Source: a virus. From it: a DNA stretch of 31,814 bases. This document shows positions 6,633-24,969 of the stretch, one piece after another (the first letter of the stretch is position 1; each line of letters opens with the position of its first letter). The notes under the pieces were generated by a model. That model saw nothing but the letters and a program-made list of their open reading frames with translations. It had not been told where the DNA came from and made no database searches. The stretch lies in UHGV virus genome UHGV-0219172. One strand, given 5' to 3'. Made by a program: the position numbers and the translations under genes.

Positions 6633-6735
6633 TGATTTAATGAAATTTCGGAGTCATAAATATTGTGTATTTAACTAGATGATTGCAATATAAGTGCTTA
6701 TTATTTATGCGATTATAGCCATAACGGAGCTGAGT

Positions 6736-7665
6736 ATGAGTGTTGCAAGGCATCATCATTTTTTATCCCAATGTTATTTGAAAGGGTTTACAAGTAATGG
6801 GGGGAAAAAATCAAAATTAACTGTAATAGATTTAAAGGAGCGCAAAACCTTTGAGAGTAATACTCGCAATGTCGGGGGGGTTAGAGATTTCAACCGATTA
6901 GAATTGGATGGAGTTGACCCAAACTATCTCGAGAGTTCTCTTGCAGAGTTTGAAGGCAGTGTAGCTACTCATTTAAGAAAACTTGAGGAGGGGGGCGAGT
7001 TTTCAGGCGAAACCAAAGATGTTATTCTGGAGTTTATTTCCTTATTGGCAATACGTACGCCTGCTCAGCGAGAACATTTATCATCTCCATTGAAACAAAT
7101 AGCAAAGTTTATCATGAAATCCTCAGTTAGTTCGGCTGAGCGTTGGGACGATTGCAAATTAGCTTATGAGAAAGAAATGGGTGAGTCTTTGCCATATGAT
7201 CTCGCTTACGAAAAAATTAAAAATTTTGTGGATGGGGATAATTTCGAAATCAATGTAATCAGAGAGTTCATGATAGATATGGAAATGAAATGTGTACCTG
7301 TTATCACCAAGTTGTTGCATCAACGCAACTGGTCACTTATGACCATATCTGATGGGCAAGGGTCATTTATAACTTCAGATAACCCAGTTTGCTTAATGTG
7401 GACTAATCCTGAATTAGCACGAGGCCCTTATTCCCCCGGGTTTGGTGTAAAAGACACTTTAGTTTTGTTCCCAGTATCAAAAAACCTTCTTTTGGCGGGC
7501 GAGTTTGATGGTCATGAGGGTGTATTCAGTTGTAATGAGGAGCAGGCTGCGGTCTTCAATACTTCAGTCATTCGGCATACCGCAGAAAGAATATTTTCAT
7601 CTAATGATAATTTCAAATTTTTAGACTCATCTAAAAAAATGAAGCAAGGCAAAAGCCTGGTTTGA
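6736..7665 (+). CDS. cargo gene at the A-cos (tin/old) position: DUF4238-like protein, candidate single-gene anti-phage defence
   Basis: ATG 6736 with GGAG SD (6726-6729). The track start at 6694 is GTG. N-terminus HHFLSQCYLKGF and internal ITSDNPV resemble recalled DUF4238 signatures. Visibly AT-rich relative to the flanking phage genes. Confidence 0.55.
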   Translation: MSVARHHHFLSQCYLKGFTSNGGKKSKLTVIDLKERKTFESNTRNVGGVRDFNRLELDGVDPNYLESSLAEFEGSVATHLRKLEEGGEFSGETKDVILEFISLLAIRTPAQREHLSSPLKQIAKFIMKSSVSSAERWDDCKLAYEKEMGESLPYDLAYEKIKNFVDGDNFEINVIREFMIDMEMKCVPVITKLLHQRNWSLMTISDGQGSFITSDNPVCLMWTNPELARGPYSPGFGVKDTLVLFPVSKNLLLAGEFDGHEGVFSCNEEQAAVFNTSVIRHTAERIFSSNDNFKFLDSSKKMKQGKSLV

Positions 7666-7880
7666 TAGCGGTTTTTCTATGATTTTACTAGGAGAATTCT
7701 ACCCTTAATCAGTGTGTTTAAAATGATTAATTGTCATAACATTTTTTCATTTTTAGGTGTGCCTAGAAATGCATTCAATTGCATGCGTTTTCCTCCCCTG
7801 TTGCGTCTGAGCGCCACCAGTGCCGGCGCGCCTCCGGTGTATTCGTGCACCTGCATTAAAACCGACCCATAAAGCGGGCA

Positions 7881-7899
7881 GGCGAGGCGGGGATAGCAC
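7881..7899. other. candidate cos site (19-nt cohesive end region GGCGAGGCGGGGATAGCAC)
   Basis: Lies in the GC-rich non-coding region between the cargo gene and the Q stop, where P2 cos resides. Differs at about two positions from my recollection of P2 cos (GGCGAGGCGGGGAAAGCAC). Confidence 0.5.
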
Positions 7900-8041
7900 T
7901 GCGCGCTGGCGGTGGTGCTGATTTTATTTTTTCAGCGTCTCAGCGCGTCGTGACGGCGTTTGGATTGTGCGCCGGGGCGTTGGTGTGTCTGCGGGGTGTT
8001 TTGTGCGGTGGTGAGCGTGTGAGGGCGTGATGACGGGGTGT

Positions 8042-8063
8042 AAAAAAGCCGCCCGCAGGCGGC
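8042..8063 (-). terminator. rho-independent terminator after Q (minus strand)
   Basis: GC stem GCCGCC/GGCGGC (8048-8053 and 8058-8063) with a 4-nt loop, then a six-A run at 8042-8047 (six U on the minus-strand RNA), immediately after the Q stop codon. Confidence 0.6.
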
Positions 8064-8068
8064 GATGT

Positions 8069-9103
8069 TCAGCCGTTGTCAGTGTCCAGTGAGTAGTTTT
8101 TAAAGCGGATGACCTCCTGACCGAGCCAGCCGTTTATCTCGCGGATCCTGTCCTGTAGCGGGATAAGCTCATTGCGGACAAAGACCTTTGCCACTTTCTC
8201 AATATCACCCAGCGACCCGACGTTCTCCGGCTTGCCGCCCATCAACTGAAAGGGGATGCGGTGCGCGTCCAGCAGGTCAGCGGCGCTGGCTTTTTTGATA
8301 TTAAAAAAATCGTCCTTCGTTGCCACTTCACTGAGCGGGATAATTTTAATGCCGTCGGCTTTCCCCTGCGGGGCATAGAGAAACAGATTTTTAAAGTTGT
8401 TGCGGCCTTTCGACTTGACCATGTTTTCGCGAAGCATTTCGATATCGTTGCGATCCTGCACGGCATCGGTGACGTACATGATATATCCGGCATGAGCGCC
8501 GTTTTCGTAATACTTGCGGCGGAACAGCGTGGCCGACTCATTCAGCCAGGCAGAATTAAGGGCGCTGAGATATTCCGGCAGGCCGTACAGCTCCTGATTA
8601 ATATCCGGCTCCAGCAGGTGAAACACGGAGCCGGGCGCGAAGGCTGTCGGCTCGTTGAAGGACGGCACCCACCAGTAAACATCCTCCTCCACGCCACGGC
8701 GGGTATATTTTGCCGGTGAGGTTTCCAGTCTGATGACCTTACCGGTGGTGCTGTAACGCTTTTCCAGAAACGCATTACCGAACACCAGAAAATCCAGCAC
8801 AAAGCGGCTGAAATCCTGCTGGGAAAGCCACGGGTGCGGAATAAACGTTGAAGCCAGAATATTACGTTTGACGTAAATCGGTGAGCTGTGATGTACGGCA
8901 GCACGCAGGCTTTTTGCCAGACCGGTAAAGCTGACCGGTGGCTCATACCATCTGCCGTTACTGATGCACTCGACGTAATCCAGAATGTCACGGCGGTCGA
9001 GTACCGGCACCGGTTCACCAAAGGTGAATGCCTCCATTTTCGGGGCGCTGGCGGTCATTTTTTTTGCCGCAGGTTGCGGTGTTTTCCCTTTTTTCTTGCT
9101 CAT
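8069..9103 (-). CDS. Q: portal protein
   Basis: 344-aa ORF on the minus strand, in an operon with the large terminase and divergent from O, as in P2. Confidence 0.9.
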   Translation of the reverse strand: MSKKKGKTPQPAAKKMTASAPKMEAFTFGEPVPVLDRRDILDYVECISNGRWYEPPVSFTGLAKSLRAAVHHSSPIYVKRNILASTFIPHPWLSQQDFSRFVLDFLVFGNAFLEKRYSTTGKVIRLETSPAKYTRRGVEEDVYWWVPSFNEPTAFAPGSVFHLLEPDINQELYGLPEYLSALNSAWLNESATLFRRKYYENGAHAGYIMYVTDAVQDRNDIEMLRENMVKSKGRNNFKNLFLYAPQGKADGIKIIPLSEVATKDDFFNIKKASAADLLDAHRIPFQLMGGKPENVGSLGDIEKVAKVFVRNELIPLQDRIREINGWLGQEVIRFKNYSLDTDNG

Positions 9104-10875
9104 CAGTAAAACTCCAGAATGGTGGATGTCAGCGGGGTGCTGATACCGGCGGTGAGTGGCTCATTTAACAGGGCGTGCATGGTCGCCCAGGCGAGGTCGG
9201 CGTGGCTGGCTTCCTCGCTGCGGCTGGCCTCATAGGTGGCGCTGCGTCCGCTGCTGGTCATGGTCTTGCGGATAGCCATAAACGAGCTGGTGATGTCGGT
9301 GGCGCTGACGTCATATTCCAGACAGCCACGGCGAATAACGTCTTTTGCCTTGAGCACCATTGCGGTTTTCATTTCCGGCGTGTAGCGGATATCGCGTGCG
9401 GCGGGATAGAACGAGCGAACGAGCTGGAACACGCCGACACCGAGGCCGGTGGCATCAATACCGATGTATTCGACGTTGTATTTTTCGGTGAGTTTGCGGA
9501 TGGATTCAGCCTGGGTGGCAAAGTCCATGCCTTTCCACTGGTGACGCTCAAGTATTCTGAATTTGCCACCGGCCACCACCGGCGGTGCCAGCACCACGCA
9601 TCCGGCACTGTCGCCACGGTGTGACGGGTCGTAACCAATCCAGACCGGGCGGGAGCCGAACGGATTCGCGGCAAACGGCGCATAGTCTTCCCATTCTTCC
9701 AGCGTGTCGACCATGCAGCGTTGCAGCTCCTCGAACGGGAACACCGACGCCTTGTCGTCAACAAATTCACACATGAACAGGTTTTTAAAATCGTCGGCGC
9801 TGTTTTCGCGTTTAAGCTGCTCAATGTCGAACAGCGTGCAGCCACCTTTCAGGGCGTCCTCAATGGTGACAATCTGCCGCCACTGACCGTCCGCACAGAG
9901 AAGCCCACCGGCAAGAGCGTTATGACTGACGTCGATTTCCACGCGTTCGGCGGCGCTGGCGCGTCCCCGGTTGAACAGTTCACCCGACCAGAACGGGTAG
10001 GCGTCGTGCGCCAGCGTGGACGGGGTGGAGAAATAGGTCGAGCGCAGGTGACTCTGTGAGGCCATACCTGATGCCACCTTACGCAGTACCTGAAAATTCG
10101 GTATCCAGAAAATCTCGTCGACGTACAGGTCGCCGTTATGGCTCTGCGCGGTGTTGGAGTTGGTGCCGAGAAAAATCAGTTTTGCGCCGTTATTGCCCAG
10201 GACAATCGGGTCACCGGTCAGGTCAACGTCAACCAGCCGGGCAAAGGCGATGATGTATTCGCGGAACACATACGCCTGCGTTTTACTGGCCGACAGAAAA
10301 ATCTGGTTATGACCGGTTTTCAGGGCGCGCAGCAGCGCCTCGCGGGAAAAATAAAACGTCGCGCCAATCTGGCGGGATTTCAGGATATCGCGGATGCGGT
10401 GCTCAAGCCCGGCGCGATACCAGTGCAACTGATATTCGAAAGACTGCTCAAAGAAAATCTGCTCCAGCTTTTCGATAGCCTCGTCACTGAAAAAATTCTT
10501 TTTCGGTTTGCGCCGCCCGCCTTTGTTGCGGTTAGCGATGTTCGGATTAAGGTCTGCCTCGTTGCCGGTCTGGCTGTAGCGGTTTACCCGTGCCAGTCGT
10601 TCAATCTGGCGTCCGAGCAGGTCAATTTCCTTGAAGTCACCGCCGGTTTTCTGCGGTTTGATGATGAGCTGGGTCAGCCGCGCTTCCAGACTCATTTCGA
10701 CACGGCTGATGGGGGCAACGCTGTCCCAGCCGTCGCGCTGTTTCCAGCTCTGCACCGTCGGGCGTTTCATCTGCAACATGGCGGCAATCTGCGGCACGGA
10801 AAACCCCTGCCAGTACAGCAGCGCCGCCTGACGACGCGGGTCGTGTAAAAGAGTGGTGTCTGTGGTGATGGTCAT
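9103..10875 (-). CDS. P: terminase large subunit (ATPase/nuclease)
   Basis: About 590-aa ORF. ATG at 10875 is preceded by a GAGG SD; the track start at 10905 is TTG. Position as in P2. Confidence 0.9.
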   Translation of the reverse strand: MTITTDTTLLHDPRRQAALLYWQGFSVPQIAAMLQMKRPTVQSWKQRDGWDSVAPISRVEMSLEARLTQLIIKPQKTGGDFKEIDLLGRQIERLARVNRYSQTGNEADLNPNIANRNKGGRRKPKKNFFSDEAIEKLEQIFFEQSFEYQLHWYRAGLEHRIRDILKSRQIGATFYFSREALLRALKTGHNQIFLSASKTQAYVFREYIIAFARLVDVDLTGDPIVLGNNGAKLIFLGTNSNTAQSHNGDLYVDEIFWIPNFQVLRKVASGMASQSHLRSTYFSTPSTLAHDAYPFWSGELFNRGRASAAERVEIDVSHNALAGGLLCADGQWRQIVTIEDALKGGCTLFDIEQLKRENSADDFKNLFMCEFVDDKASVFPFEELQRCMVDTLEEWEDYAPFAANPFGSRPVWIGYDPSHRGDSAGCVVLAPPVVAGGKFRILERHQWKGMDFATQAESIRKLTEKYNVEYIGIDATGLGVGVFQLVRSFYPAARDIRYTPEMKTAMVLKAKDVIRRGCLEYDVSATDITSSFMAIRKTMTSSGRSATYEASRSEEASHADLAWATMHALLNEPLTAGISTPLTSTILEFY

Positions 10876-11048
10876 GAATACCTCGCCGTGATGAATACAC
10901 GGCAAGGCTACTGAGTCGCGCCCCGCGATTCGCTAAGGTGCTGTTGTGTCAGTGATAAGCCATCCGGGACTGATGGCGGAGGATGCGCATCGTCGGGAAA
11001 CTGATGCCGACATGTGACTCCTCTAATCACTATTCAGGACTCCTGACA

Positions 11049-11903
11049 ATGGCAAAAAAAGTCTCAAAATTCTTTCGTATCGGCGTTGAGGGTGACACCT
11101 GTGACGGGCGTGTCATCAGTGCGCAGGATATTCAGGAAATGGCCGAAACCTTTGACCCGCGTGTCTACGGTTGCCGCATTAACCTGGAACATCTGCGCGG
11201 CATCCTGCCTGACGGTATTTTTAAACGTTATGGCGATGTGGCCGAACTGAAGGCCGAAAAGATTGATGACGATTCGGCGCTGAAAGGCAAATGGGCGCTG
11301 TTTGCGAAAATCACCCCGACCGATGACCTTATCGCGATGAACAAGGCCGCGCAGAAGGTCTACACCTCAATGGAAATTCAGCCGAACTTTGCCAACACCG
11401 GCAAATGTTATCTGGTGGGTCTGGCCGTCACCGATGACCCGGCAAGCCTCGGCACGGAATACCTGGAATTCTGCCGCACGGCAAAACACAACCCCCTGAA
11501 CCGCTTCAAATTAAGCCCTGAAAACCTGATTTCAGTGGCAACGCCTGTTGAGCTGGAATTTGAAGACCTGCCTGAAACCGTGTTCACCGCCCTGACCGAA
11601 AAGGTGAAATCCATTTTTGGCCGCAAACAGGCCAGCGATGACGCCCGTCTGAATGACGTGCATGAAGCGGTGACCGCTGTTGCTGAACATGTGCAGGAAA
11701 AGCTGAGCGCCACTGAGCAGCGACTCGCTGAGATGGAAACCGCCTTTTCCGCACTTAAGCAGGAGGTGACTGACAGGGCGGATGAAACCAGCCAGGCATT
11801 CAGCCGCCTGAAAAACAGTCTCGACCACACCGAAAGTCTGACCCAGCAGCGCCGCAGCAAGGCCACCGGCGGTGGCGGTGACGCCCTGATGACGAACTGC
11901 TGA
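11049..11903 (+). CDS. O: capsid scaffolding protein
   Basis: Starts MAKKVSKFFRIGVEGDTCDGR; the track ORF extends upstream to 10983 without an SD. Divergent from P as in P2. Confidence 0.9.
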   Translation: MAKKVSKFFRIGVEGDTCDGRVISAQDIQEMAETFDPRVYGCRINLEHLRGILPDGIFKRYGDVAELKAEKIDDDSALKGKWALFAKITPTDDLIAMNKAAQKVYTSMEIQPNFANTGKCYLVGLAVTDDPASLGTEYLEFCRTAKHNPLNRFKLSPENLISVATPVELEFEDLPETVFTALTEKVKSIFGRKQASDDARLNDVHEAVTAVAEHVQEKLSATEQRLAEMETAFSALKQEVTDRADETSQAFSRLKNSLDHTESLTQQRRSKATGGGGDALMTNC

Positions 11904-11961
11904 CCGGCGTCAGCCAGTCCGGGAAAACCTTCACGATTAACCCTTAATTTCAGGAAAAACT

Positions 11962-13035
11962 ATGCGCCAGGAAACCCGCTTTAAATTTAATGCCTACCTG
12001 TCCCGTGTTGCCGAACTGAACGGCATCGACGCCGGTGATGTGTCGAAAAAATTCACCGTTGAACCGTCGGTCACCCAGACCCTGATGAACACCATGCAGG
12101 AGTCCTCTGACTTTCTGACCCGCATCAACATTGTGCCGGTCAGCGAAATGAAAGGGGAAAAAATTGGTATTGGTGTCACCGGCTCCATCGCCAGCACCAC
12201 AGACACCGCCGGTGGCACCGAGCGTCAGCCGAAGGACTTCTCGAAGCTGGCGTCAAACAAGTACGAATGCGACCAGATTAACTTCGATTTTTATATCCGC
12301 TACAAAACGCTTGACCTGTGGGCGCGTTATCAGGATTTCCAGCTCCGTGTCCGTAACGCCATTATCAAACGCCAGTCCCTTGATTTAATCATGGCCGGTT
12401 TTAACGGCGTGAGGCGTGCCGAAACCTCTGACCGCAGCAGTAACCAGATGCTGCAGGATGTGGCGGTCGGCTGGCTGCAGAAATACCGCAATGAAGCCCC
12501 GGCGCGCGTGATGAGCAAGGTTACTGACGAGGAAGGTCACACGACCTCTGAGGTCATCCGCGTGGGTAAGGGCGGTGATTATGCCAGCCTCGATGCACTG
12601 GTGATGGATGCGACCAACAACCTGATTGAGCCGTGGTATCAGGAAGACCCTGACCTTGTGGTGATTGTGGGGCGTCAGCTACTGGCGGACAAGTATTTCC
12701 CCATCGTCAACAAGGAGCAGGACAACAGCGAGATGCTGGCCGCTGACGTCATCATCAGCCAGAAACGCATCGGTAACCTGCCGGCGGTACGCGTCCCGTA
12801 CTTCCCGGCGGATGCGATGCTCATCACGAAGCTGGAAAACCTGTCCATCTACTACATGGATGACAGCCATCGCCGCGTGATTGTGGAAAACCCGAAACTC
12901 GACCGCGTGGAGAACTACGAGTCAATGAACATTGATTACGTGGTGGAAGACTACGCCGCCGGTTGTCTGGTGGAAAAAATCAAGGTCGGTGACTTCTCCA
13001 CACCGGCTAAAGCGACCGCAGAGCCGGGAGCGTAA
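11962..13035 (+). CDS. N: major capsid protein
   Basis: 357-aa ORF following the scaffold gene; size and position as P2 gpN. Confidence 0.9.
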   Translation: MRQETRFKFNAYLSRVAELNGIDAGDVSKKFTVEPSVTQTLMNTMQESSDFLTRINIVPVSEMKGEKIGIGVTGSIASTTDTAGGTERQPKDFSKLASNKYECDQINFDFYIRYKTLDLWARYQDFQLRVRNAIIKRQSLDLIMAGFNGVRRAETSDRSSNQMLQDVAVGWLQKYRNEAPARVMSKVTDEEGHTTSEVIRVGKGGDYASLDALVMDATNNLIEPWYQEDPDLVVIVGRQLLADKYFPIVNKEQDNSEMLAADVIISQKRIGNLPAVRVPYFPADAMLITKLENLSIYYMDDSHRRVIVENPKLDRVENYESMNIDYVVEDYAAGCLVEKIKVGDFSTPAKATAEPGA

Positions 13036-13038
13036 CCG

Positions 13039-13782
13039 ATGACGAGTCCCGCACAGCGCCACATGATGCGGGTCTCGGCAGCGATGACCGCGCAGCGGGA
13101 AGCCGCCCCGCTGCGACATGCAACTGTCTATGAGCAGATGCTGGTTAAGCTCGCCGCAGACCAGCGCACACTGAAAGCGATTTATTCAAAAGAGCTGAAG
13201 GCCGCGAAAAAACGCGAACTGCTGCCGTTCTGGTTGCCGTGGGTGAACGGCGTGCTGGAGCAGGGCAAAGGTGCACAGGATGACATTCTGATGACGGTCA
13301 TGCTGTGGCGTCTGGATACCGGCGATATTGCCGGTGCGCTGGAGATTGCCCGTTATGCCCTGAAGTACGGTCTGACCATGCCGGGTAAACACCGCCGCAC
13401 CCCGCCGTACATGTTCACCGAGGAGGTCGCGCTTGCGGCCATGCGTGCCCACGCTGCCGGTGAGTCTGTGGATACCCGCCTGCTGACGGAGACCCTTGAA
13501 CTGACTGCCGCTGCTGACATGCCTGATGAAGTGCGCGCAAAGCTGCACAAAATCACCGGTCTGTTTCTGCGTGACGGTGGTGATGCCGCCGGTGCGCTGG
13601 CGCACCTGCAACGTGCGACACAGCTCGACTGTCAGGCAGGCGTCAAAAAAGAGATTGAACGACTGGAGCGGGAGCTGAAACCGAAGCCGGAGCCGCAGCC
13701 AAAAGCGGCCACCCGTACCCCGCGTAAGACCCGGAGCGTGACACCGGCAAAACGTGGACGCCCGAAAAAGAAAGCCAGTTAA
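13039..13782 (+). CDS. M: terminase small subunit
   Basis: 247-aa ORF with a basic, Pro/Lys-rich C-terminus, in the P2 M position. Confidence 0.85.
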   Translation: MTSPAQRHMMRVSAAMTAQREAAPLRHATVYEQMLVKLAADQRTLKAIYSKELKAAKKRELLPFWLPWVNGVLEQGKGAQDDILMTVMLWRLDTGDIAGALEIARYALKYGLTMPGKHRRTPPYMFTEEVALAAMRAHAAGESVDTRLLTETLELTAAADMPDEVRAKLHKITGLFLRDGGDAAGALAHLQRATQLDCQAGVKKEIERLERELKPKPEPQPKAATRTPRKTRSVTPAKRGRPKKKAS

Positions 13783-13881
13783 CAACCGAATGCGCCCCGC
13801 GCCAGGGCGGCACGCCGGTCAGTGAGGGTGAATCATCTGACACTGCACCGGCGTCCACCGCCCGACTTTTCAGAGGTAGTC

Positions 13882-14391
13882 ATGATGACGCTGATTATTC
13901 CGCGAAAGGAGGCTCCCGTGTCCGGTGAGGGTACGGTGGTCATCCCGCAACCGGCAGGCGACGAGCCGGTGATTAAAAACACGTTCTTTTTTCCCGATAT
14001 CGACCCGAAGCGCGTCCGGGAACGTATGCGCCTTGAGCAGACTGTCGCCCCCGCCCGTCTGCGTGAGGCCATCAAGTCAGGCATGGCGGAAACAAATGCG
14101 GAGCTGTACGAGTACCGCGAACAGAAAATTGCCGCCGGTTTTACGCGTCTGGCGGACGTCCCGGCGGACGACATCGACGGTGAAAGCATCAGGGTTTTTT
14201 ACTACGAGCGCGCCGTGTGTGCGATGGCGACCGCGTCGCTGTATGAGCGTTATCGCGGCGTGGATGCCAGTGCGAAAGGCGACAAGAAGGCTGACAGCAT
14301 TGACAGCACCATTGATGAGCTGTGGCGGGATATGCGCTGGGCGGTGGCGCGCATCCAGGACAAGCCGCGCTGCATCGTGAGTCAAATCTGA
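13882..14391 (+). CDS. L: head completion protein
   Basis: Start MMTLIIPRKEAPV with AGAGG SD; the track ORF extends upstream to 13822. Stop overlaps the X start. Confidence 0.85.
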   Translation: MMTLIIPRKEAPVSGEGTVVIPQPAGDEPVIKNTFFFPDIDPKRVRERMRLEQTVAPARLREAIKSGMAETNAELYEYREQKIAAGFTRLADVPADDIDGESIRVFYYERAVCAMATASLYERYRGVDASAKGDKKADSIDSTIDELWRDMRWAVARIQDKPRCIVSQI

Positions 14392-14594
14392 TGAAGACCT
14401 TTGCGCTACAGGGCGACACGCTCGACGCCATTTGTGTCCGGTATTACGGGCGCACTGAGGGCGTGGTTGAGACCGTGCTCGCCGCAAATCCGGGACTGGC
14501 TGAACTGGGCGCGGTGCTGCCGCACGGCACCGCCGTCGAACTGCCCGACGTTCAGACCGCGCCCGTGGCTGAAACTGTCAATCTGTGGGAGTAA
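14391..14594 (+). CDS. X: tail protein X
   Basis: 67-aa ORF starting MKTFALQGDTLDAICVRYYG, at the P2 X position preceding the lysis cassette. Confidence 0.85.
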   Translation: MKTFALQGDTLDAICVRYYGRTEGVVETVLAANPGLAELGAVLPHGTAVELPDVQTAPVAETVNLWE

Positions 14595-14597
14595 CGC

Positions 14598-14879
14598 ATG
14601 ACAGCAGAAGAAAAAAGCGTCCTGTCGCTTTTCATGATTGGGGTGCTGATTGTTGTCGGCAAGGTGCTTGCCGGTGGTGAACCCATCACCCCGCGTCTGT
14701 TTATCGGGCGCATGTTGCTCGGTGGTTTTGTCTCGATGGTTGCCGGTGTTGTTCTGGTGCAGTTTCCTGACCTGTCATTGCCTGCGGTGTGCGGCATCGG
14801 CTCCATGCTGGGTATCGCCGGTTATCAGGTGATTGAGATTGCCATTCAGCGCCGCTTTAAGGGCAGGGGGAAACCGTAA
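14598..14879 (+). CDS. Y: holin
   Basis: 93-aa protein with hydrophobic transmembrane stretches and a charged C-terminus, directly upstream of the endolysin. Confidence 0.85.
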   Translation: MTAEEKSVLSLFMIGVLIVVGKVLAGGEPITPRLFIGRMLLGGFVSMVAGVVLVQFPDLSLPAVCGIGSMLGIAGYQVIEIAIQRRFKGRGKP

Positions 14880-15376: not shown

Positions 15377-15390
15377 ACGGAGTAAACACC

Positions 15391-16229: not shown

Positions 16230-16374
16230 CCCGCAGAAGAACGGCGATTTAAGTGCCGATATCCGGCAGCTTGAGAACGCGCTGGCACGCTGTGCCAGCC
16301 AGGTAAAAATGATTAAACACTGTCAGGACGAAAACGATGCTCAAACCCGACAGCCTGCGCAGGGCGCTGACTGA
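16084..16374 (+). CDS. lysC: outer-membrane lipoprotein spanin LysC (Rz1-like), nested +1 within lysB
   Basis: ATG at 16084 in the +1 frame of lysB. Starts MKTRISAAGMALTCLMLCAGC with lipobox L-C-A-G-C, the classic embedded o-spanin arrangement. Confidence 0.75.
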   Translation: MKTRISAAGMALTCLMLCAGCTSVRPALTPVIVANACPKVSLCPMPGSDPQKNGDLSADIRQLENALARCASQVKMIKHCQDENDAQTRQPAQGAD

Positions 16375-16804
16375 TGCCGTCACGGTGCTGAAAACTAACC
16401 CCGATATGCTGCGGATATTCGTGGATAACGGGAGTATTGCCTCCACACTGGCGACGTCGCTGTCGTTCGAAAAGCGTTACACGCTCAATGTCATTTTGAC
16501 CGACTTTACCGGTGATTTTGACCTGCTCATCGTGCCGGTGCTGGCGTGGCTGCGGGAAAATCAGCCCGACATCATGACCACCGACGAAGGCCAGAAAAAG
16601 GGCTTCACGTTTTATGCGGACATCAACAATGACAGCAGCTTTGATATCAGCATCAGCCTGATGCTGACCGAGCGCACGCTGGTCAGTGAGGTGGACGGCG
16701 CGCTGCATGTGAAGAATATCCCGGAACCCCCGCCGCCGGAGCCGGTCACCCGCCCGATGGAGCTTTATATCAATGGCGAACTGGTGAGCAAGTGGGATGA
16801 ATGA
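16337..16804 (+). CDS. R: tail completion protein R
   Basis: 155-aa ORF at the P2 R position. Confidence 0.85.
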   Translation: MLKPDSLRRALTDAVTVLKTNPDMLRIFVDNGSIASTLATSLSFEKRYTLNVILTDFTGDFDLLIVPVLAWLRENQPDIMTTDEGQKKGFTFYADINNDSSFDISISLMLTERTLVSEVDGALHVKNIPEPPPPEPVTRPMELYINGELVSKWDE

Positions 16805-17249
16805 GTTTAAGCGTTTTGAAGACCGGCTGGCCGGACTTATTGAATCGCTGTCACCGTCAGGGCGTCGGCGACTGAGTGCCGAACTGGCGAAACGTCTGCG
16901 TCAGAGTCAGCAGCGTCGGGTGATGGCACAGAAAGCCCCGGACGGCACACCCTACGCGCCACGCCAGCAGCAGAGCGCCAGAAAAAAGACCGGTCGCGTT
17001 AAGCGAAAAATGTTTGCGAAACTTATCACCAGTCGTTTTTTGCATATCCGCGCCAGCCCGGAACAGGCATCAATGGAATTTTACGGCGGGAAGTCACCGA
17101 AAATCGCCAGCGTGCATCAGTTTGGTCTGTCGGAAGAAACCCGGAAAGACGGTAAGAAAATTGATTATCCGGCGCGTCCTTTGCTCGGCTTTACCGGTAA
17201 GGATGTGCAGATGATTGAAGAGATTATCCTGGCTCACCTCGATCGTTAG
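16797..17249 (+). CDS. S: tail completion protein S
   Basis: 150-aa ORF overlapping the R stop, at the P2 S position. Confidence 0.85.
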   Translation: MNEFKRFEDRLAGLIESLSPSGRRRLSAELAKRLRQSQQRRVMAQKAPDGTPYAPRQQQSARKKTGRVKRKMFAKLITSRFLHIRASPEQASMEFYGGKSPKIASVHQFGLSEETRKDGKKIDYPARPLLGFTGKDVQMIEEIILAHLDR

Positions 17250-17399
17250 TTGTGCAATTTTTTTACGCTTTATTGCTGAGTTGTTGATTGTTGTATAACA
17301 CTCTTTGTATTTTCGTCGGATAAGTTTTAATTGCCACTTGAAAATATACAGTCGATTGGGGCATAAGGATTCATCAATGGTGATCGTTTGAATGTTTAA

Positions 17400-17430
17400 G
17401 GCCGCGATAAAATGTCGCGGCCAGTTTTTT
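17400..17430 (+). terminator. rho-independent terminator after the R-S transcript
   Basis: Stem GGCCGCGA (17400-17407) and TCGCGGCC (17415-17422), followed by a six-T run (17425-17430). Confidence 0.65.
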
Positions 17431-17453
17431 CCGTTTGCGAACTGACCAGGTTG

Positions 17454-18197
17454 TTATCTGGTTAAATAAGTGAGCTCACTCTCTTTAGGTATTAGCTGAG
17501 TGTCTCCTCCCCATTCGTTCATGATGTTTTTTCTCGCATTCCAGTATTCTTGGTAAGTATCTTGATGAACAGTGTAGATACTTGCTAAAAGCCAGTGTTG
17601 ATACTTAAGAGTCGTGTATTGGTATTCTTCTATTATCGGTAAAATGAATAAGTTTTTTTGCTTTAGTGAGATTAAATATTCTTTTGTTTGTTTGGTGGTT
17701 CTGTCATTGTTTAAGATTCTTTCAATCTTAAATGAAAAGCCGTGCATGTTTATATTTCTTTGGAGGTGCATGAATGATGATATTGATGGGGCGATCATGT
17801 TTTGATGCGTCAGGATGTTTCTTAAATCCTCCATTAATTTTATTACTGGATTATTTCGGAATTCATGATTGATGAATGCCTCTGATTTGATTTTAATGTC
17901 GGCAATATTTAATGCTTTTGTTTTAAGTAGGTTGCGCGTTGAATCTCTAAATGATAATGCTGAAGATATATAATTGAAAAGGTGTCTTGATATGTTTAAA
18001 TGTTCTTTTTTAAATTTGTCTCTGTTAAATGAATGACGGGAAACAATGTCAGGGGAGTTGAATTTGCTTAATTCATGTTGGACAACTTCGTAATTGGCAA
18101 TATGCATATGTCCAAGTAAATTGGTGTCGGAGATTTTTAAATACTCTTGGTGGGCGATGGTGTCTTTTTGATTTTCCCAGATTTGATATTTATCCAT
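17454..18197 (-). CDS. cargo gene at the S-V (P2 orf30) position: 247-aa protein of unknown family with two RNxxxH motifs, candidate HEPN-like defence/abortive-infection protein
   Basis: Antisense to the late operon, with its own SD (AAGGAA upstream of the minus-strand ATG). Visibly AT-rich. Motifs LRNILTH (R126 to H131) and QRNINMH (R147 to H152) fit the HEPN Rx4-6H pattern. I recognise no family. Confidence 0.5.
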   Translation of the reverse strand: MDKYQIWENQKDTIAHQEYLKISDTNLLGHMHIANYEVVQHELSKFNSPDIVSRHSFNRDKFKKEHLNISRHLFNYISSALSFRDSTRNLLKTKALNIADIKIKSEAFINHEFRNNPVIKLMEDLRNILTHQNMIAPSISSFMHLQRNINMHGFSFKIERILNNDRTTKQTKEYLISLKQKNLFILPIIEEYQYTTLKYQHWLLASIYTVHQDTYQEYWNARKNIMNEWGGDTQLIPKESELTYLTR

Positions 18198-18216
18198 ACT
18201 TCAGTTCCTTCTTGAT

Positions 18217-18234
18217 TGTGCCAAAAATGATACA
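18217..18234. promoter_or_regulatory. TGT-N12-ACA dyad, candidate Ogr-type late-activator site for the V promoter
   Basis: TGTGCCAAAAATGATACA in the 83-bp divergent intergenic region between the cargo gene and V. Matches the P2/P4 late-promoter dyad pattern, but its centre is only about 55 bp from the V ATG, closer than I would expect. Confidence 0.3.
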
Positions 18235-18280
18235 ACGGGTTGTAATGGTTTATCGAGTATATATCTCTCATTATTGCCGT

Positions 18281-18916
18281 ATGAGCACATTATCAAATAT
18301 TCAGGAACTCGCGCGCGCACTGCGCAACATGATACGCACCGGCATTGTCGTCGAAACCGACCTTAACGCCGGTCGCTGCCGTGTGCAGACCGGCGGCATG
18401 TGCACCGACTGGCTTCAGTGGCTGACCCATCGCGCCGGGCGTTCGCGCACATGGTGGGCACCTTCCGTGGGGGAACAGGTGCTGATTCTGGCCGTGGGCG
18501 GTGAACTCGACACGGCGTTCGTTCTGCCGGGGATTTATTCCGGCGATAACCCCGCGCCGTCTGCGTCGGCGGATGCCCTGCATATCCGTTTCCCTGACGG
18601 GGCGGTGATTGAATATGAACCCGAAACCAGTGCACTTACGGTAAGCGGAATTAAAACGGCCAGCGTGACGGCCTCTGATTCTGTTACTGCCACGGTGCCG
18701 GTGGTCATGGTGAAAGCATCAACCCGCGTCACCCTGGACACACCGGAGGTGGTCTGCACCAACAGGCTGATTACCGGCACGCTGGAAGTGCAGAAGGGCG
18801 GGACGATGCGCGGCAACATTGAACATACCGGCGGTGAACTCTCATCAAACGGTAAGGTACTGCATACCCATAAACACCCCGGCGACAGCGGCGGCACAAC
18901 CGGGAGTCCTTTATGA
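18281..18916 (+). CDS. V: baseplate spike/assembly protein V
   Basis: Starts MSTLSNIQELARALRNMIRTG; the track ORF extends upstream to 18212. Confidence 0.9.
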   Translation: MSTLSNIQELARALRNMIRTGIVVETDLNAGRCRVQTGGMCTDWLQWLTHRAGRSRTWWAPSVGEQVLILAVGGELDTAFVLPGIYSGDNPAPSASADALHIRFPDGAVIEYEPETSALTVSGIKTASVTASDSVTATVPVVMVKASTRVTLDTPEVVCTNRLITGTLEVQKGGTMRGNIEHTGGELSSNGKVLHTHKHPGDSGGTTGSPL

Positions 18917-19260
18917 CAGCGCGTTATCTCGGAATGAATCGCAGTGATGGCCTGACTGTCACTGACCTTGAGCATATCAGCCAGAGTATCGGCGATATCC
19001 TGCGTACACCGGTCGGCTCACGGGTGATGCGTCGTGATTACGGCTCGTTGCTGGCATCAATGATTGACCAGCCGCAGACCCCGGCGCTTGAGTTGCAGAT
19101 TAAGGTCGCCTGTTACATGGCGGTGCTGAAATGGGAACCCCGCGTCACCCTGTCATCCGTCACCACGGCGCGCAGCTTTGACGGGCGAATGACGGTCACG
19201 TTAACCGGCCAGCACAACGATACCGGCCAGCCACTTTCGTTAACCATCCCTGTGAGTTGA
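18913..19260 (+). CDS. W: baseplate protein W
   Basis: 115-aa ORF overlapping the V stop. Confidence 0.9.
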   Translation: MTARYLGMNRSDGLTVTDLEHISQSIGDILRTPVGSRVMRRDYGSLLASMIDQPQTPALELQIKVACYMAVLKWEPRVTLSSVTTARSFDGRMTVTLTGQHNDTGQPLSLTIPVS

Positions 19261-19264
19261 AACC

Positions 19265-20173
19265 ATGCCGATTATCGACCTGAACCAGCTACCCGCACCG
19301 GATGTGGTCGAGGAGCTGGACTTTGAAATCATTCTCGCTGAACGCAAGGCGACACTGATTTCCCTTTACCCGGAAGACCAGCAGGAGGCGGTCGCCCGTA
19401 CCCTGACGCTGGAATCTGAGCCTCTCGTCAAACTGCTGGAGGAAAATGCTTATCGTGAGCTTATCTGGCGTCAGCGTGTGAATGAGGCTGCGCGGGCGGT
19501 GATGCTGGCCTGTGCCGCCGGTAATGACCTTGATGTGATTGGTGCCAATTACAACACCACGCGCCTGACTATCACCCCGGCAGATGATTCGACCATCCCG
19601 CCGACACCGGCAGTGATGGAGTCTGACACCGATTATCGTCTGCGTATTCAGCAGGCGTTTGAGGGCTTAAGCGTCGCCGGGTCGGTGGGAGCCTATCAGT
19701 ATCATGGTCGCAGTGCCGACGGGCGTGTCGCGGATATCTCTGTCACCAGTCCGTCTCCGGCCTGCGTCACTATCTCCGTGCTGTCTCGCGAAAATAACGG
19801 TGTCGCATCCGAAGACCTGCTGGCGGTGGTGCGCAACGCCCTGAATGGTGAGGACGTCAGGCCGGTGGCCGACCGCGTGACCGTGCAGTCTGCCGCCATC
19901 GTTGAATACCAGATAAACGCCACGCTTTACCTTTACCCTGGTCCCGAAAGCGAACCCATCCGCGCTGCTGCCGTGAAAAAACTGGAAGCGTACATCACGG
20001 CACAGCACCGGCTGGGGCGCGACATCCGTCTGTCTGCTATTTATGCCGCTTTGCATGTGGAAGGCGTGCAGCGTGTCGAGCTGGCTGCACCACTGGCCGA
20101 CATTGTGCTCAACAGTACGCAGGCGTCTTTCTGCACCGAATACCGCGTCGTGACCGGAGGCTCGGATGAGTGA
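19265..20173 (+). CDS. J: baseplate protein J
   Basis: 302-aa ORF in the conserved V-W-J-I order. Confidence 0.9.
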   Translation: MPIIDLNQLPAPDVVEELDFEIILAERKATLISLYPEDQQEAVARTLTLESEPLVKLLEENAYRELIWRQRVNEAARAVMLACAAGNDLDVIGANYNTTRLTITPADDSTIPPTPAVMESDTDYRLRIQQAFEGLSVAGSVGAYQYHGRSADGRVADISVTSPSPACVTISVLSRENNGVASEDLLAVVRNALNGEDVRPVADRVTVQSAAIVEYQINATLYLYPGPESEPIRAAAVKKLEAYITAQHRLGRDIRLSAIYAALHVEGVQRVELAAPLADIVLNSTQASFCTEYRVVTGGSDE

Positions 20174-20696
20174 TTCGCGCCTGCTGCCGACCGGCTCATC
20201 ACCGCTTGAAGTCGCCGCCGCAAAAGCCTGTGCGGAAATTGAAAAAACGCCGGTCAGTATTCGTGAACTGTGGAACCCGGACACCTGTCCGGCAAATCTG
20301 CTGCCGTGGCTGGCGTGGGCGTTTTCGGTCGACAGGTGGGATGAAAAGTGGCCGGAAGCGACAAAACGCGCCGTTATCCGCGATGCCTATTTCATCCACT
20401 GTCATAAGGGCACGATAGGTGCAATCCGGCGTGTGGTGGAGCCGCTGGGCTATCTCATCAACGTGACGGAGTGGTGGGAAACCAGTGACCCGCCGGGCAC
20501 CTTCCGGCTTGATATTGGTGTACTGGAAAGTGGCATCACAGAGGCAATGTATCAGGAAATGGAACGGCTGATTGCTGATGCCAAACCTGCAAGCCGTCAC
20601 CTTATTGGCCTGAACATTACCCGGGACATTCCCGGCTACCTGTTCGCCGGTGGTGTGGCTTACGACGGCGATGTAATTACGGTTTACCCCGGATAA
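20166..20696 (+). CDS. I: baseplate/tail protein I
   Basis: 176-aa ORF overlapping the J stop. Confidence 0.9.
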   Translation: MSDSRLLPTGSSPLEVAAAKACAEIEKTPVSIRELWNPDTCPANLLPWLAWAFSVDRWDEKWPEATKRAVIRDAYFIHCHKGTIGAIRRVVEPLGYLINVTEWWETSDPPGTFRLDIGVLESGITEAMYQEMERLIADAKPASRHLIGLNITRDIPGYLFAGGVAYDGDVITVYPG

Positions 20697-20706
20697 GTGA
20701 GGAATA

Positions 20707-22635
20707 ATGAGCACAAAATTCAGAACCGTTATCACCACTGCCGGTGCAGCAAAGCTGGCAGCGGCAACCGCGCCTGGAGGGCGGAAGGTCAACATTACCA
20801 CGATGGCCGTCGGGGATGGCGGTGGTAAATTGCCTGTCCCGGATGCCGGACAGACCGGGCTTATCCATGAAGTCTGGCGACATGCGCTGAACAAAATCAG
20901 CCAGGACAAACGAAACAGTAATTATATTATCGCAGAGCTGGTTATTCCGCCGGAGGTGGGCGGTTTCTGGATGCGTGAGCTTGGCCTGTACGATGATGCG
21001 GGAACATTAATTGCCGTGGCGAACATGGCCGAAAGTTATAAGCCAGCTCTTGCCGAAGGCTCAGGGCGTTCGCAGACCTGTCGCATGGTCATCATCGTCA
21101 GCAGTGTGGCCTCAGTGGCGCTGACCATTGACACCACAACGGTGATGGCGACGCAGGATTACGTTGATGACAAAATTGCAGAGCATGAACAGTCACGACG
21201 TCACCCGGACGCCTCGCTGACCGCAAAAGGTTTTACTCAGTTAAGCAGTGCGATCAACAGCACGTCTGAAACACTGGCCGCAACGCCGAAAGCGGTAAAG
21301 GCCGCGTATGATCTTGCTAACGGGAAATACACTGCGCAGGATGCCACCACAGCGCGAAAAGGCCTTGTCCAGCTCAGTAGCGCCACCAACAGCACGTCTG
21401 AAACGCTCGCCGCAACACCAAAAGCGGTAAAGGCAGCATATGACCTTGCTAACGGGAAATACACTGCACAGGACGCCACCACAGCGCGAAAAGGTCTTGT
21501 CCAGCTCAGTAGCGCCACCAACAGCGATTCTGAAACGCTTGCAGCAACGCCAAAGGCGGTTAAGACAGCGTATGACCTTGCTAACGGGAAATACACTGCG
21601 CAGGATGCCACCACGGCGCGAAAAGGCCTTGTCCAGCTCAGTAGCGCCACCAACAGTGATTCTGAAACGCTGGCCGCAACACCAAAAGCAGTGAAGTCTG
21701 CCTATGACAATGCTGAAAAACGTCTTCAGAAAGATCAGAACGGTGCGGATATTCCGGGAAAGGATACCTTCACGAAAAATATCGGTGCCTGTCGTGCTTA
21801 TAGCGGCGCTTTGAGCACTGAAGCCGGAAACTGGACAACCGCTCAGTTTATTGAATGGCTGGATTCCCGTGGTGCATTTAATCATCCGTACTGGATGTGC
21901 AAATGTTCATGGTCATACGGCAATAATAAAATTATTACCGATACTGGCTGTGGAACTATTCATCTTGCAGGTTGCGTTATTGAGGTTATGGGTAATAAAG
22001 GTGCCATGACCATCCGTGTAACAACACCAAGCACTTCCACCGGAGGCGGCACCACTAACGCTCAATTCACTTATATTAATCATGGTGATGCTTATGCTCC
22101 TGGCTGGCGACGAGACTACAACACGAAAAACCAGCAGCCTGCATTTGCTTTAGGGAAAACAGGAAGCACTGTCGGAAATGATAAAGCTGTTGGCTGGAAC
22201 TGGAATAGCGGGGTCTATCAAGCAAATATTGGTGGCGCATCGACATTAATCCTCCATTTCAATATGAGCGAGGGGAGTTGCCCTGCCGTACAGTTCCGTG
22301 TGAATTATAAGAACGGCGGTATTTATTATCGTTCAGCGCGTGATGGTTATGGATTTGAGGCTGACTGGTCAGAGTTTTACACCACAACCCGCAAACCCTC
22401 TGCGGGAGATGTTGGTGCATATACCAAAGATGAATCGGATTCTCGCTATGTACGAGATATTCGCCTGGGCACACGTGTTGTTCAGACTATGCAAAAAGGT
22501 GTGATGTATGAGAAAGCAGGGCACGTAATTACCGGGCTTGGTATTGTCGGTGAAGTCGATGGTGATGACCCCGCAGTATTCAGACCAATACAAAAATACA
22601 TCAATGGAACATGGTATAACGTCGCACAGGTGTAA
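20707..22635 (+). CDS. H: tail fiber protein H with internal 44-aa tandem repeats and a lower-GC C-terminal domain
   Basis: 642-aa ORF after I. N-terminus conserved P2-like; the C-terminal third is visibly more AT-rich. Confidence 0.85.
   Translation: MSTKFRTVITTAGAAKLAAATAPGGRKVNITTMAVGDGGGKLPVPDAGQTGLIHEVWRHALNKISQDKRNSNYIIAELVIPPEVGGFWMRELGLYDDAGTLIAVANMAESYKPALAEGSGRSQTCRMVIIVSSVASVALTIDTTTVMATQDYVDDKIAEHEQSRRHPDASLTAKGFTQLSSAINSTSETLAATPKAVKAAYDLANGKYTAQDATTARKGLVQLSSATNSTSETLAATPKAVKAAYDLANGKYTAQDATTARKGLVQLSSATNSDSETLAATPKAVKTAYDLANGKYTAQDATTARKGLVQLSSATNSDSETLAATPKAVKSAYDNAEKRLQKDQNGADIPGKDTFTKNIGACRAYSGALSTEAGNWTTAQFIEWLDSRGAFNHPYWMCKCSWSYGNNKIITDTGCGTIHLAGCVIEVMGNKGAMTIRVTTPSTSTGGGTTNAQFTYINHGDAYAPGWRRDYNTKNQQPAFALGKTGSTVGNDKAVGWNWNSGVYQANIGGASTLILHFNMSEGSCPAVQFRVNYKNGGIYYRSARDGYGFEADWSEFYTTTRKPSAGDVGAYTKDESDSRYVRDIRLGTRVVQTMQKGVMYEKAGHVITGLGIVGEVDGDDPAVFRPIQKYINGTWYNVAQV
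21229..21709 (+). repeat. in-frame 132-bp tandem repeat, about 3.6 copies, inside tail fiber gene H
   Basis: Units begin at 21229, 21361, 21493 and 21625, each encoding G(L/F)(V/T)QLSSA(T/I)NS(T/D)SETLAATPKAVK(A/T/S)AYDLANGKYTAQDATTARK. Confidence 0.9.
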
Positions 22636-22638
22636 TTT

Positions 22639-23166
22639 ATGCAGCATTTAAAAAATATTATTGCGGGTAATCCAAAAACTGTTGCCCAATATCAACTGAC
22701 AAAAAATTTTGATGTTATCTGGTTATGGTCCGAAGAGGGAAAAAACTGGTATGAGGAAGTAAGTAATTTTCAGGAGGACACGATAAAGATTGTTTACGAC
22801 GAGAATAATATAATTGTCGGCATCACCAGAGATGCTTCAACGCTTAACCCTGAAGGTTTTAGCGTTGTCGAGGTTCCTGATATTACCGCCAACCGACGTG
22901 CTGATGACTCAGGTAAATGGATGTTTAAGGATGGTGCCGTGATTAAGCGGATTTATACGGCAGACGAACAGCAACAACAGGCCGAATCACAAAAGGCCGC
23001 GTTACTTTCCGAAGCGGAAAGCGTTATCCAGCCGCTGGAACGCACCGTCAGGCTGAATATGGCGACGGATGAGGAGCGCGCACGACTGGAGTCATGGGAA
23101 CGCTACAGCGTTCTGGTCAGCCGTGTGGATCCTGCAAATCCTGAATGGCCGGAAATACCGCAATAA
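22639..23166 (+). CDS. G: tail fiber assembly chaperone
   Basis: 175-aa ORF immediately after H, with lower GC like the H C-terminus. Confidence 0.8.
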
Positions 23167-23456
23167 GTTGTATGATATCTGGAGTGAGCTAACGTATCTA
23201 TGGCACAGAGTAAAACTTAATCTGACAGTCTGCTCTGTACCAAAAGCGGAACTTGCTTACATCGTGCTATGTTAGTTTGCTGGGAGCAGGTCATTATCTA
23301 CGTGATTGCTATTTTATAACTTGGATAAAATGAGGGATGAACATAATATCGAGACAGTGATTGCAGAGTTAGTCATTATAGGCGGGCATCAGTTCATGCC
23401 GGATCTCTAATGCAATTATCAGGAAAATATGGGACGTTTTATCAATCAGAGGAAAT

Positions 23457-24683
23457 ATGTTACAGTTCAGCTTTGTATCAAATGACGTTGTTATGACTTA
23501 CGACGGTGACAGCGGAGAACAAATAATTTGGGTTTGGGAGAGTTTAAATAAATTTCAAACAGTATGCATTTCACGAATTTTTAACTTTCAACTCCAGGAC
23601 TTGAGAAACCCACCGTCAACCGTTCAGGATTTTAATGATTACGAATATTCCTTTAATTTTGGCACGCTTAATAATGAATACATAACAGTTCCGGGACGGA
23701 TTCTAAGCATTAATCGAGATGTCCTTATACATAAGTCCATCAAGCTTGAAAGGAAAGTATTTGCGTCAGAACGCAACGTCTCCATTTTTGGTCGGCTTTC
23801 AAAACTACTCGATCACACTAATCCCATCATCATCGGAGGAGATAAGCCGGAAGCTATACCAAAAAGCGTATTCCAGGAGTTGCAAAGTAAATTCCACAAC
23901 ACAGGGGAACTGGATCGCTATGCTAATGCAAGGGTTCACGCTATTCTCGCAGGTTATCTTGATGGTATGAAAGATGCTCGCGAACGGTATGAACATTACC
24001 TAAACAGAAAAACAGTGATCAGAAAAACCGACAAACTGGATTTAGAAGTTTTAAATAAGCTCGAAATTGAGAAATATACACTCATAAGAGACATTATCCA
24101 GGATGCGTTGAATAACAAAACTAACTTGTCTGAAGATGACTGGCAGAGCCTGATGATACCCTTCATCACATTACTTTTTCCAAAATATATCAAGGTCCTC
24201 GAGAAGGTTAAAATTTTCGACTATTACTCTAATCCTTCGGCTAAAACAAATCGGTTTATAGACATTGCACTGGTGGATGCAAACGGCAACCTTGATATCA
24301 TCGAAGTCAAAAAGCCGTTTGATGATAAGATCCTTCGCAAGACGCCCTATCGCGATAACTATATTCCTACATCAGAACTTAGCGGCGGTATTATGCAGGC
24401 TGAAAAGTATATTTTTCATTTATCTAAATGGGGTGTTAAGGGTGAAAAAGAGCTTACGAATGCCTACAAGAATTCTCTGCCAGCGGGAATGTGTATTCGT
24501 ATATCTAACCCAAAAGCCATCATCATTGTCGGACGCGATCAGATAGCGAACGGTAACATGACCGACGGTCAGTTGCTTGATTTTGAGATAATCAAACGTA
24601 AGTACGCCAACATGATAGACATATTGACGTACGACGACCTGTTGCGTCGACTTAATAATACGATTGAAGCATTGAAAGGTTGA
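23457..24683 (+). CDS. cargo gene at the G-FI (Z/fun) position: 408-aa protein with a C-terminal PD-(D/E)xK nuclease-like core, possibly Shedu (DUF4263)-like; candidate anti-phage defence
   Basis: ATG 23457 with GAGG SD. Visibly AT-rich, flanked by about 290 bp of non-coding DNA on each side. C-terminal region FIDIALVDANGNLDIIEVKKP ... QAEKY gives D269/D280, E283-x-K285 and Q314...Y318, a restriction-endonuclease-fold pattern. Confidence 0.5.
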   Translation: MLQFSFVSNDVVMTYDGDSGEQIIWVWESLNKFQTVCISRIFNFQLQDLRNPPSTVQDFNDYEYSFNFGTLNNEYITVPGRILSINRDVLIHKSIKLERKVFASERNVSIFGRLSKLLDHTNPIIIGGDKPEAIPKSVFQELQSKFHNTGELDRYANARVHAILAGYLDGMKDARERYEHYLNRKTVIRKTDKLDLEVLNKLEIEKYTLIRDIIQDALNNKTNLSEDDWQSLMIPFITLLFPKYIKVLEKVKIFDYYSNPSAKTNRFIDIALVDANGNLDIIEVKKPFDDKILRKTPYRDNYIPTSELSGGIMQAEKYIFHLSKWGVKGEKELTNAYKNSLPAGMCIRISNPKAIIIVGRDQIANGNMTDGQLLDFEIIKRKYANMIDILTYDDLLRRLNNTIEALKG

Positions 24684-24752
24684 ATGCCCATGAGGTTCAC
24701 ACCCACAACGGGGAGCAGGTCACTTCCTCTTGTTTGATTGACATACCATAAC

Positions 24753-24776
24753 GTCTGCTTTTGGCTCAAAGCAGAC
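24753..24776 (+). terminator. hairpin, candidate terminator of the cargo gene
   Basis: 9-bp stem GTCTGCTTT / AAAGCAGAC with a 6-nt loop, about 70 bp after the stop, followed by T-rich sequence. Confidence 0.45.
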
Positions 24777-24844
24777 TGTCTGATTTGATAGCTTTTGGGC
24801 TATGTAAATTGTCAGTTGAAAAATGAGTGAGTACAAATCAGGAC

Positions 24845-24872
24845 GGGCGGGCGAGTTGCCCGCCTTTTCTTT
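24845..24872 (+). terminator. rho-independent terminator upstream of the FI late promoter region
   Basis: GC stem GGCGGGC (24846-24852) and GCCCGCC (24858-24864), loop GAGTT, then TTTTCTTT. Confidence 0.6.
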
Positions 24873-24969
24873 AATCTGTTGTTTCATCCACTGACCAGTC
24901 AGGTCAAATAGCGTCTTATGCACTGCCCAACAGAAAATAGTTGCACCCATTAACCACGGAGTTAAACGG

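Follow-up and report, generated by a model that had tools for sequence, protein, structure and literature searches.

A P2-type prophage with a different AT-rich, single-gene cargo in each of its three cargo slots

UHGV virus genome UHGV-0219172 was analysed as one stretch of 31,814 nucleotides (nt), read on one strand from 5' to 3' and referred to below as the window. The window is a complete, intact P2-type (Peduovirus) prophage integrated beside cyaR. Its backbone is interrupted by three AT-rich islands, between gene A and cos, between S and V, and between G and FI, a layout that follows the three-region concept of P2 cargo (PMC6823313). Each island holds one long intact open reading frame (ORF), and these are called c1, c2 and c3 in the order of their slots. 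The islands, with their guanine plus cytosine (GC) content, and the cargo genes, with lengths in amino acids (aa), are as follows.

6633..7880: island 1, A-cos (the 'TO region'), from the A stop to cos; GC 0.390
6736..7665, plus strand: c1, 309 aa, matching a single-gene DUF4238 defence protein (Pfam DUF4238, PADLOC DUF4238-Pers)
17250..18280: island 2, S-V (the orf30 position), from the S stop to the V start; GC 0.344
17454..18197, minus strand: c2, 247 aa, member of phrog_12680, candidate HEPN-like ribonuclease (RNase) from its motif and AlphaFold2 model
23167..24969: island 3, G-FI (the Z/fun position), from the G stop to the FI start; GC 0.404
23457..24683, plus strand: c3, 408 aa, Shedu nuclease SduA (Pfam SduA_C, PADLOC SduA)

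The original prediction had proposed three AT-rich, single-gene cargos at these positions, and base composition, breaks in BLASTN homology and ORF content all agree with it; the interval it gave, 6633-24969, correctly spans the three islands. GC content of the prophage backbone was 0.538. The cargo ORFs measured 0.390 (c1), 0.332 (c2) and 0.394 (c3), all under the minimum (0.428) of 479 backbone windows of 750 bp. The islands contained no second credible ORF, tRNA or Rfam family, c1 being the sole credible ORF between A and cos, and the only Rfam match in the window was CyaR at attR. The description of the cargo as single-gene therefore holds. Promoter scans of all three islands gave matches at or below chance, and for this reason were not used as evidence.

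The ends of the prophage, its cos site and the genes flanking the three slots were located as follows.

783..809: attL, left copy of the 27-nt P2 att core, an exact direct repeat of 31675-31701
31675..31701: attR, overlapping the 3' end of the CyaR small RNA (sRNA) gene
7881..7899: cos site, 19-nt cohesive end, aligning with P2 coordinates 1-19 (cosL)
4419..6632, plus strand: replication endonuclease gpA, left flank of slot 1 (Pfam Phage_GPA, 1.2e-122)
8069..9103, minus strand: portal gpQ, right flank of slot 1 (Pfam Phage_portal; P2 homology)
16797..17249, plus strand: tail completion gpS, left flank of slot 2 (Pfam Phage_tail_S, 2.3e-43)
18281..18916, plus strand: baseplate spike gpV, right flank of slot 2 (Pfam Phage_base_V and Phage_spike; start taken from the RefSeq annotation of identical DNA)
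22639..23166, plus strand: tail-fibre assembly gpG, left flank of slot 3 (Pfam Caudo_TAP, 2.2e-35)
24970..26160, plus strand: tail sheath gpFI, right flank of slot 3 (Pfam Phage_sheath_1)

By BLASTN the backbone was approximately 97-98% identical to phage P2 (AF063097) over most of its length, with about 25 kb covered; identity was about 93% over the FI-D tail genes and lower in H/G. Homology to P2 begins at position 783, equivalent to P2 attP 24356, and the P2 gene order is kept: gpA, Q, P, O, N, M, L, X, the lysis genes, R, S, V, W, J, I, H, G, FI, FII, E, T, U and D. Homology was interrupted at 6480-7880, 17252-18293 and 23255-24749, as well as in the variable part of the tail-fibre gene H (approximately 21.4-22.4 kb). 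The first three breaks correspond to the P2 positions of tin/old (A-cos), orf30 (S-V) and fun(Z) (G-FI). At the left boundary of slot 1, homology to P2 stops at 6479, inside the 3' end of gene A (6479-6632), and the last 50 or so gpA codons thus belong to the swapped cargo module.

The att core and cos are the same as in P2, as are the three points of interruption, each of which carries AT-rich, non-essential DNA in P2 too. All three cargo genes differ, however. Whereas P2 tin, old and fun(Z) lie on the minus strand, c1 and c3 lie on the plus strand; orf91 is missing here and the C-terminus of gpA is replaced.

The cargo of slot 1 can be recognised from its sequence as a known single-gene DUF4238 defence type that blocks T7 in a near-identical homologue. 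c1 matched Pfam DUF4238 at 5e-39 (134.8 bits against a cut-off of 27; positions 2-280 of 281) and PADLOC DUF4238-Pers at 1.8e-219 (725 bits; 1-309 of 309). Its start was set at the ATG at 6736 and not at the GTG at 6694, because this is where the tested homologue begins, as do the profiles of PADLOC and PHROG. That homologue, the Escherichia coli TA007 protein of pFR101, is identical to c1 at 284 of 309 residues (92%). The two share slot, length, start codon and the proximal upstream DNA, and differ by 25 substitutions. Rousset et al. 2022 reported that the single DUF4238 gene, taken from the A-Q hotspot of a P2 prophage and expressed from its native promoter, gave strong resistance to T7 (pFR101, Table S2). 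A relative of DUF4238 with a solved structure was not detectable by sequence.

Slot 3 carries Shedu SduA. c3 matched Pfam SduA_C (PF14082, DUF4263, a PD-(D/E)xK nuclease) at 3.4e-33 (115.5 bits; positions 2-159 of 159) and PADLOC SduA at 3.7e-218. The protein is identical at 407 of 408 residues to the 'Shedu effector protein' of PDB 8PS4/8PS5: the catalytic region is the same as in 8PS4, and residues 1-188 equal the N-terminal construct 8PS6 except at position 147, which is H in c3 and P in the solved protein. The exact c3 variant was rare, being found on four short contigs only, each of which breaks in gene H. Loeff et al. described E. coli SduA as a tetrameric nickase whose N-terminal clamp recognises free double-stranded DNA ends, showed protection against T6, and noted that Shedu occupies Z/fun in P2 prophages. 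What c3 is and where it sits have thus already been published.

Two terminator-like hairpins lie 3' of c3; both are consensus matches only.

24753-24776, plus strand: terminator-like hairpin
24845-24865, plus strand: terminator-like hairpin

Between G and the co-directional c3 (23167-23456) no terminator-like hairpin was found, whereas P2 has its V-operon terminator after G. Read-through of the late operon into Shedu during lytic growth may therefore occur. P2 replicates and packages its DNA from circular monomers, and this would explain how it tolerates a nuclease that senses DNA ends.

Each slot accordingly holds a different gene, and near-identical homologues give two of the three experimental support as defence genes. 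The term 'candidate effector', applied beforehand to all three, is too modest for c1 and c3, whose tested counterparts are near-identical, and claims too much for c2.

c2 had no match in Pfam, NCBIfam or PADLOC, and none was found at threshold for 80 relatives. It belongs to phrog_12680, and its matches in PHROGs were to families of unknown function only; a tblastn search of 50,697 phage records returned nothing. Close family members are very few (7 of 5.8 billion clusters), while an exhaustive profile search recovered 337 distant relatives, mostly of about 240 aa. In some ten relatives of 600-720 aa, among them P0029, P0037, P0052, P0068, P0076, P0078 and P0144, the c2-like module forms the N-terminus, and the C-terminal halves of the relatives of about 700 aa had no Pfam match. 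Other occupants of the S-V slot were considered as kin. P2 Orf30 shares slot and strand with c2, is of similar size (261 against 247 aa) and is non-essential, but was rejected as a homologue (BLASTP E = 0.74; hhalign probability 0.2-0.3%). The S-V genes of L725 (347 aa) and PE144 (246 aa) were likewise rejected, with hhalign probabilities below 1%.

Conserved residues and a structural model suggest that c2 is a candidate HEPN-like RNase. In the alignment of 80 sequences the sole invariant residues were N75, R126 and H131 (R126 and H131 each in 80 of 80); N127 was present in 75 of 80. Anantharaman et al. 2013 (PMC3710099) define the HEPN motif as Rx4-6H in which the arginine is followed by N, D or H, all polar. 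The motif closes core helix 3 and runs into the loop ahead of helix 4, within a four-helix up-down core that has an insert between helices 2 and 3. c2 has a spacing of x4 and the polar N127 directly after R126. An AlphaFold2 model built with the same alignment was confident (predicted local distance difference test score 95.5; predicted template modelling score 0.90) and consists chiefly of long helices. In the model, R126-N-x3-H131 falls at the C-terminal end of helix 117-131 and is followed by a loop and a beta-hairpin. Helices 14-44, 59-90 and 185-214, with an extra helix at 99-113, are compatible with a HEPN core, a reading made without coordinate superposition on a HEPN structure. Helix 59-90 carries two pairs of acidic and basic residues, E68 (57 of 80) with R71 (72 of 80) and D/E85 (75 of 80) with R88 (75 of 80), at a spacing of x2 compared with the HEPN-typical Ex3[KR].

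Tests at the family level did not confirm this assignment. HEPN profiles did not match c2 at threshold, with one relative hitting PF18736 at only E = 0.0057. Foldseek found nothing for c2, and the fold search did not single out HEPN. As neither profile nor fold tests gave a HEPN match, 'HEPN-like' is used here for a working mechanism and not for membership of the family. Like stand-alone HEPN abortive-infection RNases of prophages (for example HepS of Gifsy-1, AbiV and pEK499_p136-like proteins), c2 is a single, prophage-borne gene for a mostly alpha-helical protein of about 250 aa. It also resembles them in its invariant R-N-x3-H at the end of a helix, in the conserved acidic and basic residues (though spaced x2) of the preceding long helix, and in having relatives next to restriction-modification (RM) and other defence genes. 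It differs from them in the beta-hairpin inserted after the motif and in lacking a significant HEPN profile match.

Around c2, two putative signals were read from the sequence.

17400..17422, plus strand: terminator-like hairpin closing the O late operon, in the gap where S and c2 converge (10 bp stem and T-run; consensus only)
18217..18234, plus strand: putative TGT-N12-ACA site of Ogr/activator type for the late promoter pV

The centre of the putative activator site lies about 55 bp upstream of V, the distance also annotated in P2. For c2, scans whose matches were not above chance placed a promoter-like sequence on the minus strand (-35 at 18256, -10 ending at 18227), and the activator site overlaps its -10. 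The start of c2 is preceded by a good Shine-Dalgarno sequence (AAGGAA), and the 80-bp stretch from c2 to gene V is conserved together with c2 homologues. It could be speculated that late activation of pV represses c2. On the other side of the gene, an AT-rich spacer of 150 bp (17250-17399) separates the S stop from the hairpin; it has no counterpart in P2 and contains no credible ORF. At the loci of c2 homologues in divergent phages, the spacer after S is only about 90-105 bp.

This arrangement bears on a different role for c2. The gene could serve lysogenic conversion or virulence, act as an anti-defence or anti-P4 satellite factor, or modulate late-gene expression or assembly, in which case only two of the three cargos would be defence genes. 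The interleaving of its start and upstream region with the pV activator site, and their joint conservation, are consistent with such a role, as is the lack of a PADLOC, Pfam or NCBIfam match for c2 and 80 relatives. Homologues of 51-59% identity, moreover, occupy the same S-V slot in the same orientation in divergent P2-like phages, including one with an empty G-FI slot. Cargo unrelated to defence is documented in P2 slots, namely NeaT at G-FI and cytolethal distending toxin (CDT; Rousset 2022) and partition systems at A-Q, and a defence role for c2 therefore cannot be assumed from its position alone. Conversely, the invariant R-N-x3-H argues for an enzyme and not for a regulator. The low GC of c2 (0.33) and the presence of unrelated genes in its place in prophages about 97% identical indicate that c2 is dispensable for P2.

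The distant relatives of c2 also speak against a role outside defence: most of them lie outside phages and adjoin RM and other defence genes. Defence-type genes were found beside four of five distant relatives (loci L025 4066-7669, L031, L033 and L034), a small sample with no control. One relative has an MmeI-type RM enzyme 23 bp upstream on the same strand. Another is next to genes for an SNase, a Panacea-domain protein and an Eco57I-type RM enzyme, a third next to a 1,561-aa DUF4011/Upf1-like helicase-nuclease, and a fourth next to a KAP NTPase, a GIY-YIG protein and a type I-like RM system. On balance we consider a role for c2 outside defence rather unlikely, and the reading of c2 as a candidate HEPN-like RNase is carried forward.

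The S-V slot itself was compared among near-identical P2 prophages. The slot holds at least five mutually unrelated genes: P2 Orf30, c2, the 347-aa gene of L725, a 414-aa ATPase of KW21 and the 246-aa gene of PE144. S-V genes outside the window were located at L024 11449-12492, L036 2133-3377, L037 2703-3443 and L001 9439-10224. The KW21 ATPase alone matched a defence model, the PADLOC candidate PDC-S59 (2.8e-31). The PE144 gene lies on the late-gene strand, unlike the other S-V genes. Published surveys (Rousset 2022; Vassallo 2022; the iLund4u preprint) recognise as P2 defence hotspots only A-Q and Z/fun, plus a tail-CI locus; PMC13586616 mentions hotspots 'within the tail genes' and does not resolve S-V. 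We put forward the hypothesis that S-V genes have a defence role. More specifically, and tentatively, it is possible, though we would not call it probable, that c2 founds a new single-gene anti-phage family of HEPN-like RNases and that S-V is a third, largely unexplored P2 defence hotspot.

Cargo combinations were then compared across related prophages. That all three slots are filled had been singled out as notable, a view that did not survive the comparison: P2 itself (tin/old, orf30 and fun(Z)) and R18C also fill all three, every visible slot was occupied in the E. coli-type P2 prophages that were fetched, and only the divergent P2-like L029 has an empty G-FI slot. In the survey of Moura de Sousa et al. 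2026 (PMC13586616), 10% of the P2 elements with complete systems carry defence in several hotspots.

Among approximately 1,600 complete E. coli genomes carrying the backbone, the c1, c2 and c3 alleles were present in 14, 18 and 53 genomes, respectively. The exact c1 and c2 proteins recurred on contigs in 2,254 (c1) and 573 (c2) index blocks. c2 was accompanied at A-Q by a retron reverse transcriptase, FRG, ParA-like, NACHT, OLD-like or IS21 genes, and at G-FI by Shedu, FRG, DUF2971 or small hypothetical genes. c1 was accompanied by at least five different S-V genes. Every pair of the three cargos was found elsewhere: c1 with c3 in L725, CD45 and GMM060, c2 with c3 in L005 and L009, and c1 with c2 in GCA_000350685.1. 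The exact triple was absent from 5,426 complete E. coli genomes, in which the best coverage was 87%.

It had also been suggested that the three genes act together or counteract one another, and we found no support for this: the three modules assort independently, and this assortment, with every pair found elsewhere, argues against functional coupling. Co-selection of the three as an interacting set, through synergy or the buffering of toxicity, would make the combination itself the feature. Defence systems can synergise, which makes the idea plausible in general, and all three pairs do recur in other genomes. Against it, each cargo also occurs with many other partners, the exact triple is missing from the complete genomes, and the homologues of c1 and c3 each work alone when cloned. 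Fast, independent swapping is moreover the published norm: P2 hotspots are exchanged so rapidly that elements with identical cores differ in their defences (PMC13586616). We regard an interacting set as highly improbable.

The low GC of the islands and promoter matches no better than chance would fit a further possibility, that the islands are silent or decaying acquired DNA, silenced for example by H-NS, and now without function in the lysogen. However, the three ORFs are all of full length; the exact c1 and c2 proteins recur on contigs, and c3 is one residue away from an active enzyme. With its own upstream DNA, part of which is common to c1, the cloned DUF4238 gene was active, and a passage in PMC13586616 reports pseudogenes to be rare in P2 defence loci. 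Silent or decaying islands are therefore very unlikely.

These results point to an intact P2 prophage whose three slots were filled independently, with DUF4238, Shedu and the candidate HEPN-like c2 as parallel, independent layers, a reading that we consider probable. Each slot would have received a different foreign single-gene cassette by a separate recombination event. In slot 1, DUF4238 would act against T7-like phages. In slot 3, Shedu would act against T-even-type phages, which replicate via linear intermediates. c2 may be a stand-alone, metal-independent HEPN-like RNase, transcribed divergently from the late promoter pV, and would serve as an abortive-infection or translation-shut-off effector. 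In the lysogen, where we infer that the three genes are expressed, they would form parallel layers with different target ranges and not one system, and their protection may be additive.

The framing of the original prediction broadly stands. The layout is that of an ordinary modular P2-like phage and two of its cargos are already characterised, so that the filling of three slots in itself matters little. What is new is limited to c2 and the under-explored S-V slot. c2 combines very strong conservation, foreign composition, a confident predicted fold and an enzyme-like invariant motif with a location outside the recognised defence hotspots. The conserved S and V genes on either side make the S-V slot easy to mine; if c2 and other S-V genes prove to be defence genes, new single-gene systems could be obtained from it cheaply. 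A natural lysogen carrying three different single-gene cargos would, in addition, lend itself to testing whether prophage defences are additive or epistatic.

Several minor features were recorded in sister prophages and in the backbone. Sister prophages showed signs of decay: a c1-bearing remnant (L019) is deleted from the terminase to gpU, Shedu is truncated to 363 aa in another (L007 3650-4741), gpV is a pseudogene with an internal stop in a third (L002 13682-14317), and an IS21 insertion lies beside the terminase, in the expected portal position, in a fourth (L005 19184-20744). In the window, the tail-fibre gene H (20707-22635) contains three tandem repeats of 132 bp (44 aa) with 85-86% identity at 21225-21714, and the P2 tail fibre aligns to this region in shifted registers only. 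The CyaR (RyeE) sRNA gene adjoins the prophage on the minus strand at 31678-31763 (Rfam, 100.7 bits). At its 3' end the gene overlaps the 27-nt attR core, so that the phage att sequence supplies this end of the sRNA gene.

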